This document shows, piece by piece, positions 15,097-15,923 of a DNA stretch of 64,000 nucleotides. The notes below the pieces were generated by a model, which did not search any database, was not told the DNA's origin, and saw nothing but the letters and a program-made list of their open reading frames with translations. Location of the stretch: assembly GCF_030028105.1 (NCBI RefSeq), contig NC_092393.1, positions 29,923,248 to 29,987,247 of the forward strand, written 5' to 3'. How positions within the stretch are numbered: position 1 is the first letter of the stretch; each line of letters begins with the position of its first letter. A program made the translations under genes and the position numbers. This DNA is from Mobula birostris. Taxonomy: Eukaryota.

Positions 15097-15923
15097 GTGT
15101 AAACGGAACAAGTGCTACACATGCCCTTACACTTCCTCCCTTACCACCATTCAGGGCCCCAAACAGTCCTTCCAGGTGAGGCAACACTTCACCTGTGAGT
15201 CGACTGGGCTGATATACTGCGTCCGGTGCTCCCGATATGGCCTTTTATATATTGGCGAGACCCGACGCAGACTGGGAGACCGCTTTGCTGAACATCTACG
15301 CTCTGTCCGCCAGAGAAAGCAGGATCTCCCAGTGGCCACACATTTTAATTCTACATCCCATTCCCATTCTGACATGTCTATCCACGGCCTCCTCTACTGT
15401 CAAGATGAAGCCACACTCAGATTGGAGGAACAACACCTTATATTCTGTCTGGGTAGCCTCCAACCTGATGGCATGAACATCGACTTCTCTAACTTCCGCT
15501 AGGCCCCACCTCCCCCTCGTACCCCATCTGTTACTTATTTTTATGCACACATTCTTTCTCTCACTCTCCTTTTTCTCCCTCTGTCCCTCTGAATGTACCT
15601 CTTGCCCATCCTCTGGGTCCCCCCCCCTTGTCTTTCTTCCCGGACCTCCTGTCCCATGATCCTCTCATATCCCCTTTTGCCTATCACCTGTCCAGCTCTT
15701 GGCTCTATCCCTCCCCCTCCTGTCTTCTCCTATCATTTTGGATCTCCCCCTCCCCCCCCAACTTTCAAATCCTTTACTCACTCTTCCTTCAGTTAGTCCT
15801 GACGAAGGGTCTCGGCCTGAAACGTCGACTGCACCTCTTCCTACAGATGCTGCCTGGCCTGCTGCGTTCACCAGCAACTTTGATATGTGTTGCTTGAATT
15901 TCCAGCATCTGCAGAATTCCTGT
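15097..15923 (+). mobile_element. Penelope-like element, right arm of inverted pair
   Basis: Cys-rich linker CKRNKCYTCP then GIY-YIG ORF 15176-15502; near-identical reverse complement of ~13953-14739; whole unit flanked by 16-bp TSD TGTATTGAGTACAGGA (13936-13951, 15924-15939). Confidence 0.92.
15794..15831 (+). ncRNA. Minimal type I hammerhead ribozyme motif (PLE terminus)
   Basis: tagtc ctgacga agg gtctcgg cct gaaa cgtc gactg; predicted cleavage after C15826. Confidence 0.8.

Follow-up and report, generated by a model that had tools for sequence, protein, structure and literature searches.

A loopless minimal hammerhead motif of a likely Neptune Penelope-like element, dispersed as truncated and often inverted copies in a Mobula birostris contig

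We analyzed a 64,000-nt stretch of the Mobula birostris genome (contig NC_092393.1, positions 29,923,248 to 29,987,247; hereafter the window) and conclude, with a probability of about 0.82, that a 38-nt motif repeated along it is the hammerhead of the 3' pseudo-LTR of a Penelope-like element, likely of the Neptune clade, and that the copies present are 5'-truncated, often inverted and predicted non-cleaving relics. Such a motif is nothing unusual in a Penelope-like element, and PMC8557442 and PMC11167929 treat the role of the ribozyme in these elements as open. The present analysis extends it to a ray genome in which it is dense, with 16 motif termini in 13 insertions per 64 kb. An earlier sequence-only reading of this DNA had recognized the dense family and put it at about one terminus per 5 kb; the measured value is about one per 4 kb.

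The motif and its copies in the window

The focal copy lies antisense within a host gene.
15794-15831, plus strand: minimal type I hammerhead motif, antisense to CFAP52, matching the family layout descriptor
9474-19523, minus strand: CFAP52 (WD40 cilia protein), exon 1 at 19523-19457 and exon 2 at 9686-9474

In the focal copy, 15794-15798 pair with 15827-15831 as helix I, the core CUGACGA occupies 15799-15805 and is followed by an extra A at 15806, and helix II comprises 4 bp (15807-15810 with 15815-15818) closed by a 4-nt loop. GAAA (15819-15822) then runs without a loop into C15823-G15824-U15825, leaving C15826 as the predicted N17, after which the RNA would be cut. The stem-loop helix III of a canonical type I hammerhead is absent, there being no loop 3. 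The sequence-only reading had parsed helix I, the core, helix II, GAAA and the loopless CGUC in this way, and rightly so; its view that helix III is reduced to an ACGU palindrome is also borne out, and the same class is seen in PMC4209133. Its statement that helices I and II close properly holds insofar as both pair, but the focal pair carries G10.1•U11.1, not G10.1-C11.1. The same G•U is found in both focal copies and at 24004, and G10.1-C11.1 at 42521 and 49078.

Two copies of the 38-mer are free of mismatches (14012-14049 on the minus strand and 15794-15831 on the plus strand), and others differ at two (24004-24041, plus), three (42521-42558, minus) and five positions (49078-49115, plus). 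A minimal-hammerhead descriptor matches the window four times, at 14044(-), 15799(+), 42553(-) and 49083(+), against a mean of 0.1 and a maximum of 1 in 100 dinucleotide shuffles, none of which gave a loopless match with a helix I of at least 4 bp. The repeated family is therefore real, as had been claimed. All four matches carry the extra nucleotide, as do all 14 motifs in the relatives described below; the helix III tetramer is ACGU in three and AUGU in one, and 42521-42558(-) is the only copy to combine G10.1-C11.1 with ACGU. Similarly, a degenerate motif pattern matched five times in the window and never in 100 shuffles.

A single-sequence search of the window returned 15 matches at E ≤0.012, the query itself included, and a profile built from 15 copies gave 17 strong matches, two of them halves of one split copy; the best E value in a reversed-window decoy for that profile was 2.1. 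By these searches, all nine places that the sequence-only reading had listed as decayed are genuine family copies, although the list omitted 20619(-), 42562(+) and 40053(-), did not recognize 49312 and 49504 as the halves of the split copy, and gave 49078 as decayed, a member which, with its AUGU tetramer and GUU triplet, continues to match the descriptor. The core CUGANGA...GAAA...UH is intact at 4 of the 16 termini. An Rfam search of the window found no hammerhead family up to E = 10, the canonical type I covariance model remaining unmatched, and the viral contigs searched for the motif pattern held no exact match.

The carrier element

Upstream of the focal motif, on the same strand, lies the remainder of a protein-coding element.
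15092-15502, plus strand: 5'-truncated Penelope-like ORF with a CX4CX2C linker and a GIY-YIG domain with CCHH residues, stop at 15500-15502 (PF01541, alignment and tblastn)
15503-15793, plus strand: pyrimidine-rich part of the 3' pseudo-LTR, 80% C/T
15832-15923, plus strand: 3' end after the ribozyme, long form including an optional tail of about 30-35 nt

The motif begins 292 nt downstream of the stop at 15502, in the sense direction, and this distance is 292-297 nt across three copies. The ORFs upstream of the motif score 23.7 bits (15092-15502), 24.5 bits and, in a third copy, 21.8 bits against PF01541 of Pfam, whose cut-off is 22.6. At the end of the pyrimidine-rich part, 15789-15794 form what we take to be an initiator-like or acceptor-like stretch. 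A hairpin in the tail region 15832-15923 is weak and not significant (z -1.67).

The closest protein relatives are annotated in Mobula and Hypanus (70-91% identity for the top six), followed by those of sharks. In four of the relatives (P0007, P0012, P0013 and P0015) a weak RVT_1 match and the GIY-YIG domain share one ORF in a colinear alignment; the window copies are truncated within the thumb/linker, and a reverse transcriptase (RT) upstream of the endonuclease is seen only in the ORFs of relatives. In the alignment of the element with its relatives, neither the CX4CX2C linker nor the CCHH residues vary. A CX2-5CXXC linker between RT and endonuclease ties an element to Neptune, and a similar linker occurs in Nematis (PMC8557442). 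By its linker and by the ribozyme of its relatives, the carrier is likely an endonuclease-bearing Penelope-like element of the Neptune clade. The earlier attribution of the motif to the minimal type I hammerheads of Penelope-like elements is upheld by the GIY-YIG ORF upstream, the match to the published class and covariation across families.

Four ray proteins (P0003, P0004, P0009 and P0018) contain the element's endonuclease region despite host-gene names (kinase-domain 1C, mucin-2, chitinase domain 1 and kinase adapter). These would be cases of annotation read-through or exonization.

Relatives and covariation

A metagenome survey gave 80 loci with a related endonuclease (35-46% identity), 16 of which were dropped for having less than 300 nt downstream. 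Among the 64 evaluable loci, 14 carry a loopless motif on the sense strand 91-124 nt past the endonuclease end, with no motif in the upstream control and one on the antisense strand; 12 of the 14 have ACGU. The other 50 had no descriptor match, several of them with near-misses. The commonest of these motifs is identical to the one that PMC4209133 shows for Acropora digitifera in Fig S3 and assigns to Neptune in Table S1. None of the 80 loci has a clear pair of same-family 5' and 3' motifs on one strand, and at several of them a further copy lies upstream on the opposite strand, as in the inverted form. Near two endonuclease loci, at L014:1146(-) and L031:5217(-), there are also hammerhead-core motifs that belong to other families.

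Covariation was scored in an alignment of 12 rows (three from the window, nine from the loci), hand-chosen among descriptor matches and comprising about four families. In this alignment 91.7% of cells are paired, a percentage partly built in because the rows were chosen by a descriptor that demands pairing, and the covariation score is 0.617 versus at most 0.133 with slid partners. Two-sided changes occur in all four pairs of helix I; helix II is weak, with such changes in one of four pairs. The informative part of the alignment is that pair types change from family to family while the motif keeps its place behind the endonuclease. The window copies alone give weak covariation, with a score of 0.224 that 27 of 500 shuffles matched.

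Insertions and target-site duplications

The two mismatch-free copies, both listed as intact in the sequence-only reading, belong to the two arms of one inverted insertion (13952-15923) joined near 15100, with the arms 97.6% identical over 789 nt.
13952-15100, minus strand: left arm, with an RT-thumb/linker fragment, internal deletion and frameshift at about 14740, GIY-YIG, pseudo-LTR and short 3' end
14012-14049, minus strand: same 38-mer as the focal motif, in sense orientation within CFAP52 intron 1
13936-13951: 16-bp target-site duplication, left copy
15924-15939: 16-bp target-site duplication, right copy

The remaining insertions are as follows.
42420-42651: inverted mini-pair, intact motif 42521-42558(-) and core-truncated 42562(+), 8-bp duplication 42412-42419 / 42652-42659
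54440-54668: inverted mini-pair of older age with two defective motifs, 11-bp duplication 54429-54439 / 54669-54679
23138-24103, plus strand: 5'-truncated copy with GIY-YIG ORF, motif at 24004-24041
49077-49182, plus strand: mini-copy beginning at helix I, fitting the descriptor with AUGU
41330-41768, plus strand: older copy with its own pyrimidine-rich pseudo-LTR and a defective core, left edge approximate
39912-40492: mini-copy 39912-40008(+) arranged tail-to-tail with a longer, decayed copy (motif about 40053-40014(-), GIY-YIG remnant to 40492)
20486-20620, minus strand: decayed mini-copy, 11-bp duplication 20475-20485 / 20621-20631
19043-19166, plus strand: decayed mini-copy, antisense in CFAP52 intron 1
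2208-2332, minus strand: strongly decayed mini-copy
49312-49564, plus strand: single decayed mini-copy, split by an insertion of about 140 bp
63258-63356, minus strand: decayed mini-copy, 10-bp duplication 63238-63247 / 63369-63378

Target duplications of 16, 8 and 11 bp flank all three inverted pairs, and in each pair the 3' ends lie at two distances past the predicted cut, 65-74 nt in one arm and 95-103 nt in its partner; the focal right arm has the long end, at 15923. One long and one short 3' end per pair fit two internal RT starts combined with both-strand priming, as described in PMC11167929. Copies with 5' truncation, inverted copies, the optional tail and target duplications are all present in the window, and inverted, 5'-truncated insertions with an optional tail of 30-40 bp are known for the class (PMC8557442, PMC3846280). 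A weak tail fragment at 2336-2365(+) (E 0.17) lies inverted next to the 2332(-) copy, with which it possibly forms a fourth inverted pair. The window holds no full-length or same-strand tandem element and no direct partial tandem of two pseudo-LTRs around a full ORF, the latter absence being expected for truncated relics.

Several other repeats share the window. The insert that splits the 49312 copy (49362-49503, about 140 bp) is A/T-rich with an 11-nt duplication. A LINE fragment at 30404-33033(-) has frameshifted endonuclease and RT domains with a 564-aa open RT stretch, and LINE-related pieces lie at 13519-13917 and 46087-46587. Part of a DDE_3 transposase at 6924-7364(-) is accompanied by an inverted repeat of 230 nt at 5844-6075, and a related piece lies at 58635-58871. 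At 24590-25270(+) there are degraded remnants of RT and RNase H domains like those of LTR retrotransposons, and 38091-38355 is a self-inverted, MITE-like element of 265 nt (arm identity 73%).

Decay and subfamilies

The sequence-only reading held that most copies were inactivated by CpG decay. CpG transitions are enriched, with C-to-T or G-to-A changes in 45 of 147 cells at CpG versus 19 of 188 at other C/G positions (15 rows; the cells are non-independent), yet copies are also lost through truncation and general decay, so the claim is partly right. Among the 12 termini that fail the descriptor, only 24004-24041 was lost by CpG transitions alone (two, G8A and G16.2A); in two others the truncation runs into the core, and the remaining ones show multiple changes of mixed kind.

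The U at 11.1 is another matter. At this position C holds 20% of the depth in run X1, 28% in X2, 20% in X4 and 76% in X21, and on account of these depths U11.1 has the look of a letter typical of a subfamily, present in two related organisms, and not of private decay. The four related-organism runs consist of contigs of guessed or unknown kind, from which no transcript start, end, strand or level is taken.

Two further observations were set aside. The lower substitution at non-CpG core positions (10 of 128) versus the tail (165 of 816) was considered as a sign of selection, but the rows are related and the tail alignment is loose. A 6- to 30-fold depth step at 15782-15810 was likewise rejected as evidence, contig depth being unable to rank parts of the element and the upstream sequence being of low complexity and subfamily-diverged.

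Mini-copies starting at the ribozyme

Five termini keep the pyrimidine-rich pseudo-LTR upstream (79-84% C/T). The other 11 of the 16 lack it (39-58%; background mean 50%) and are mini-copies of 100-135 nt. By pairwise alignment, 10 of the 11 start between -13 and +11 of C3; the eleventh (2332) aligns pairwise in its tail only and reaches about -2 by profile. None starts at the cut site (+28): of 15 strong matches to a tail-only profile, 14 are joined to a ribozyme and one is the split half of 49312. Counted by insertion, the 5'-edge clustering is 9 of 13 (P ≤2e-4 under three simple truncation models, corrected for the post hoc window), and this edge is common to both 3'-end classes and to young and old subfamilies.

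Contigs from the related organisms have loose ends before 15796 (14 contigs, X2) and 15795 (142, X21), among 24 of 2,060 rows listed, and an opposite-strand joint at 15796 (X2, X21), among 15 of 268 joints listed; diverged upstream sequence could yield the same pattern of ends and joints near 15796. The clustering, with no start at the cut site, suggests uncut templates, and the simplest reading is that the template's 5' end lies just before helix I, perhaps at a start site in the initiator-like 15789-15794. Alternatively, the edge may come from a polymerase stop or a splice acceptor. We offer this reading of the clustering of mini-copy 5' ends at the front edge of the ribozyme as a tentative lead, with the odds somewhat against it. 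If true, the thousands of mini-copies per ray genome could map the start site, the priming sites and the timing of the ribozyme from DNA alone; if the clustering holds genome-wide, it would be evidence, in vivo and at genome scale, against cleavage as what sets the end of the template, and simple end-mapping would suffice as a test.

An intron ending before helix I was also considered (branch-point-like sequence, pyrimidine tract and CAG, by analogy with Drosophila virilis Penelope), but is unsupported: no GT..AG skip ending there was found among 15 of 268 joints listed, the mini-copies share no upstream exon and the relatives lack the AG. At 23980-24003(+), a branch-point-like heptamer, a pyrimidine tract and CAG directly precede helix I of the 24004 copy.

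The shape of the mini-copies could also mean that they are a non-autonomous family in their own right, of SINE-like or retrozyme-like type, whose master copy begins at the ribozyme. Such a family would explain why 11 of the 16 termini lack the pyrimidine-rich pseudo-LTR and start at -13 to +11 of C3, and retrozymes have been proposed to derive from pseudo-LTRs (bioRxiv 10.64898/2026.07.22.740005). However, the window holds no tandem units, the mini-copies occur in young and older subfamilies and share subfamily letters with the long copies, the two 3' ends and the inverted-pair form are the same as in long copies, and a retrozyme unit would begin at the cut site, where no mini-copy does. We regard a separate family as unlikely and prefer side products of the RNA of the full Penelope-like element.

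Predicted folding, activity and the host gene

Copies of the family are very numerous in related genomes, with 10,802 to 56,251 contigs matched per sequencing run. The sequence-only reading had proposed that the genome holds very many latent two-component ribozymes. The high copy number is supported; the latent two-component framing is not. In its strongest form, dispersed copies would be a reservoir in which pairing in trans or across an intron cuts host transcripts such as CFAP52 pre-mRNA. A descriptor-perfect copy does lie in sense within CFAP52 intron 1, and a double hammerhead can be drawn with standard pairs throughout. Nevertheless, the descriptor fits only 4 of the 16 termini, which belong to three insertions, and same-strand fitting copies are 28.5 kb (14044 and 42553) and 33.3 kb (15799 and 49083) apart. 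The focal copies are on opposite strands of one inverted insertion and therefore form no cis dimer. Furthermore, all 38 nt of the sense motif at 14012-14049 are predicted to be base-paired (-80.2 kcal/mol) with its antisense twin, which is transcribed earlier in CFAP52 pre-mRNA.

Predicted energies point the same way. The monomer hairpin pairs the core GACG with CGUC (P about 0.98) and lies 4.0 kcal/mol below the best core-open fold. The double hammerhead, in whose active geometry helix I must swap between strands in addition to the ACGU pairing, is put at -11.5 kcal/mol, 10.5 kcal/mol worse than two inactive monomer hairpins (-22.0), and the best dimer at -30.3, by nearest-neighbour energies, which omit Mg2+ and tertiary contacts. 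The overlapping 6-bp palindrome GUCGAC (-10.3) also outcompetes ACGU (-1.7). In PMC4209133 the monomer is inactive and the dimer weakly active, so that published activity is low even for cis dimers. In the anole element PAc (Poseidon, Anolis carolinensis; Frangieh et al. 2024, PMC11167929), cleavage needs the element's protein, and the modeled fold energies agree with both reports. We consider a reservoir of latent ribozymes very improbable; on these models, the dispersed window copies are most likely inert.

The host gene itself is represented by its first exons, later CFAP52 exons lying beyond the window's left end. A CFAP52 exon is 94% identical to a Hemitrygon protein, which together with the Mobula and Hypanus relatives of the element points to a myliobatiform ray as the likely source, and searches with the exon 1 peptide gave no match. 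No plus-strand host gene was found beyond 19.5 kb (134 ORF pieces of at least about 50 aa against Pfam). A tRNA-Gln(CTG) gene at 20016-20087(+) lies about 500 nt upstream of the CFAP52 start, in divergent orientation.

How the motif might act in a living element can be sketched. In an active tandem element, the two motifs of a transcript would exchange strands of helix I and, with their ACGU palindromes paired, make up a double hammerhead, which would cut after C17, slowly and probably only with the element's protein. The dimer geometry is taken from the literature because there is no tandem in the window and no clear same-strand 5' and 3' motif pair at the 80 loci. A lone RNA would fold into the hairpin, with the core GACG on CGUC and the cut site hidden. 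During insertion, both nicked target strands would serve as primers, with two internal start sites about 30-35 nt apart, and an uncut RNA template would yield inverted pairs and mini-copies of 100-135 nt with the whole ribozyme. Inserted copies would decay afterwards, fastest at CpG.

Another possibility is that the motif is kept for a non-catalytic role, as an RT-endonuclease binding site or a folding switch near the start of reverse transcription, with cleavage incidental. In PAc, catalytic mutants are without effect on in vitro insertion and no reads end at the cut site (PMC11167929), and Naiad elements thrive without the motif (PMC8557442). In addition, the core-burying hairpin is predicted in window and relative motifs alike, and the high-copy U11.1 variant has spread in two related organisms. 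Against such a role, it is the catalytic positions that stay invariant between families, helix I shows covariation, and other family members have been shown to cleave (PMC4209133, PMC11167929). The hairpin, moreover, is an automatic consequence of GACG and CGUC, so that its presence does not require selection. A non-catalytic role is rather doubtful, and we retain the pseudo-LTR hammerhead as the preferred reading.

Comparison with known systems

The class of loopless, ACGU-palindrome minimal hammerheads has already been published (Cervera and de la Peña 2014, PMC4209133), and a review (PMC6765202) restates it as the min-HHR class, citing Lünse, Weinberg and Breaker (RNA Biol 14:1499). Its described traits are the missing helix III loop, an extra nucleotide at 9/10.1, G10.1-C11.1 and a palindromic 15.2-16.2, and its copies are mostly single and truncated, with opposite-strand pairs and thousands per fish or amphibian genome (PMC4209133). 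The ray motif resembles this class in being of type I, with CUGANGA plus an extra nucleotide, a short helix I and GAAA-C-G-U-C without loop 3, in its pseudo-LTR position after the endonuclease, and in occurring mostly as truncated singles and opposite-strand pairs. It differs in its helix II of 3-4 bp and in the G10.1•U11.1 of the focal subfamily. No cartilaginous fish is among the examined rows of Fig S3 and Table S1 of PMC4209133, and in searches of the open literature and of two ray-genome preprints we found no published report of the ray motif or of the 5'-edge clustering.

Compared with the Acropora digitifera Neptune motif, the ray motif shares the length, the layout, the core CUGACGAA GGG, the 12-nt helix II segment and CGUC. 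The letters of helices I and II differ, the helix I differences being compensatory, and the distance from the endonuclease end is about 98 nt in Acropora digitifera Neptune versus 292-297 nt here. The proteins are 35-46% identical.

Like the non-LTR retrozymes (PMC7229834; bioRxiv 10.64898/2026.07.22.740005), the mini-copies are short, non-coding, related to pseudo-LTRs and equipped with a type I hammerhead, and related retrozymes are reported in one chondrichthyan genome (bioRxiv 10.64898/2026.07.22.740005). Known retrozymes consist of units of 170-400 nt repeated head to tail, often with canonical ribozymes, whereas the ray copies are single or inverted and 100-135 nt long, and no head-to-tail tandem units each with a hammerhead occur in the window.

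According to PMC11167929, PAc inserts from unprocessed RNA, and its ORF begins inside the ribozyme. The ray element resembles it in having two 3' ends about 30-40 nt apart and in keeping the whole ribozyme in its inserts. Unlike the ray element with its CX4CX2C linker, PAc belongs to the Poseidon clade. PAc-style priming on both strands would account for the inverted pairs seen here.
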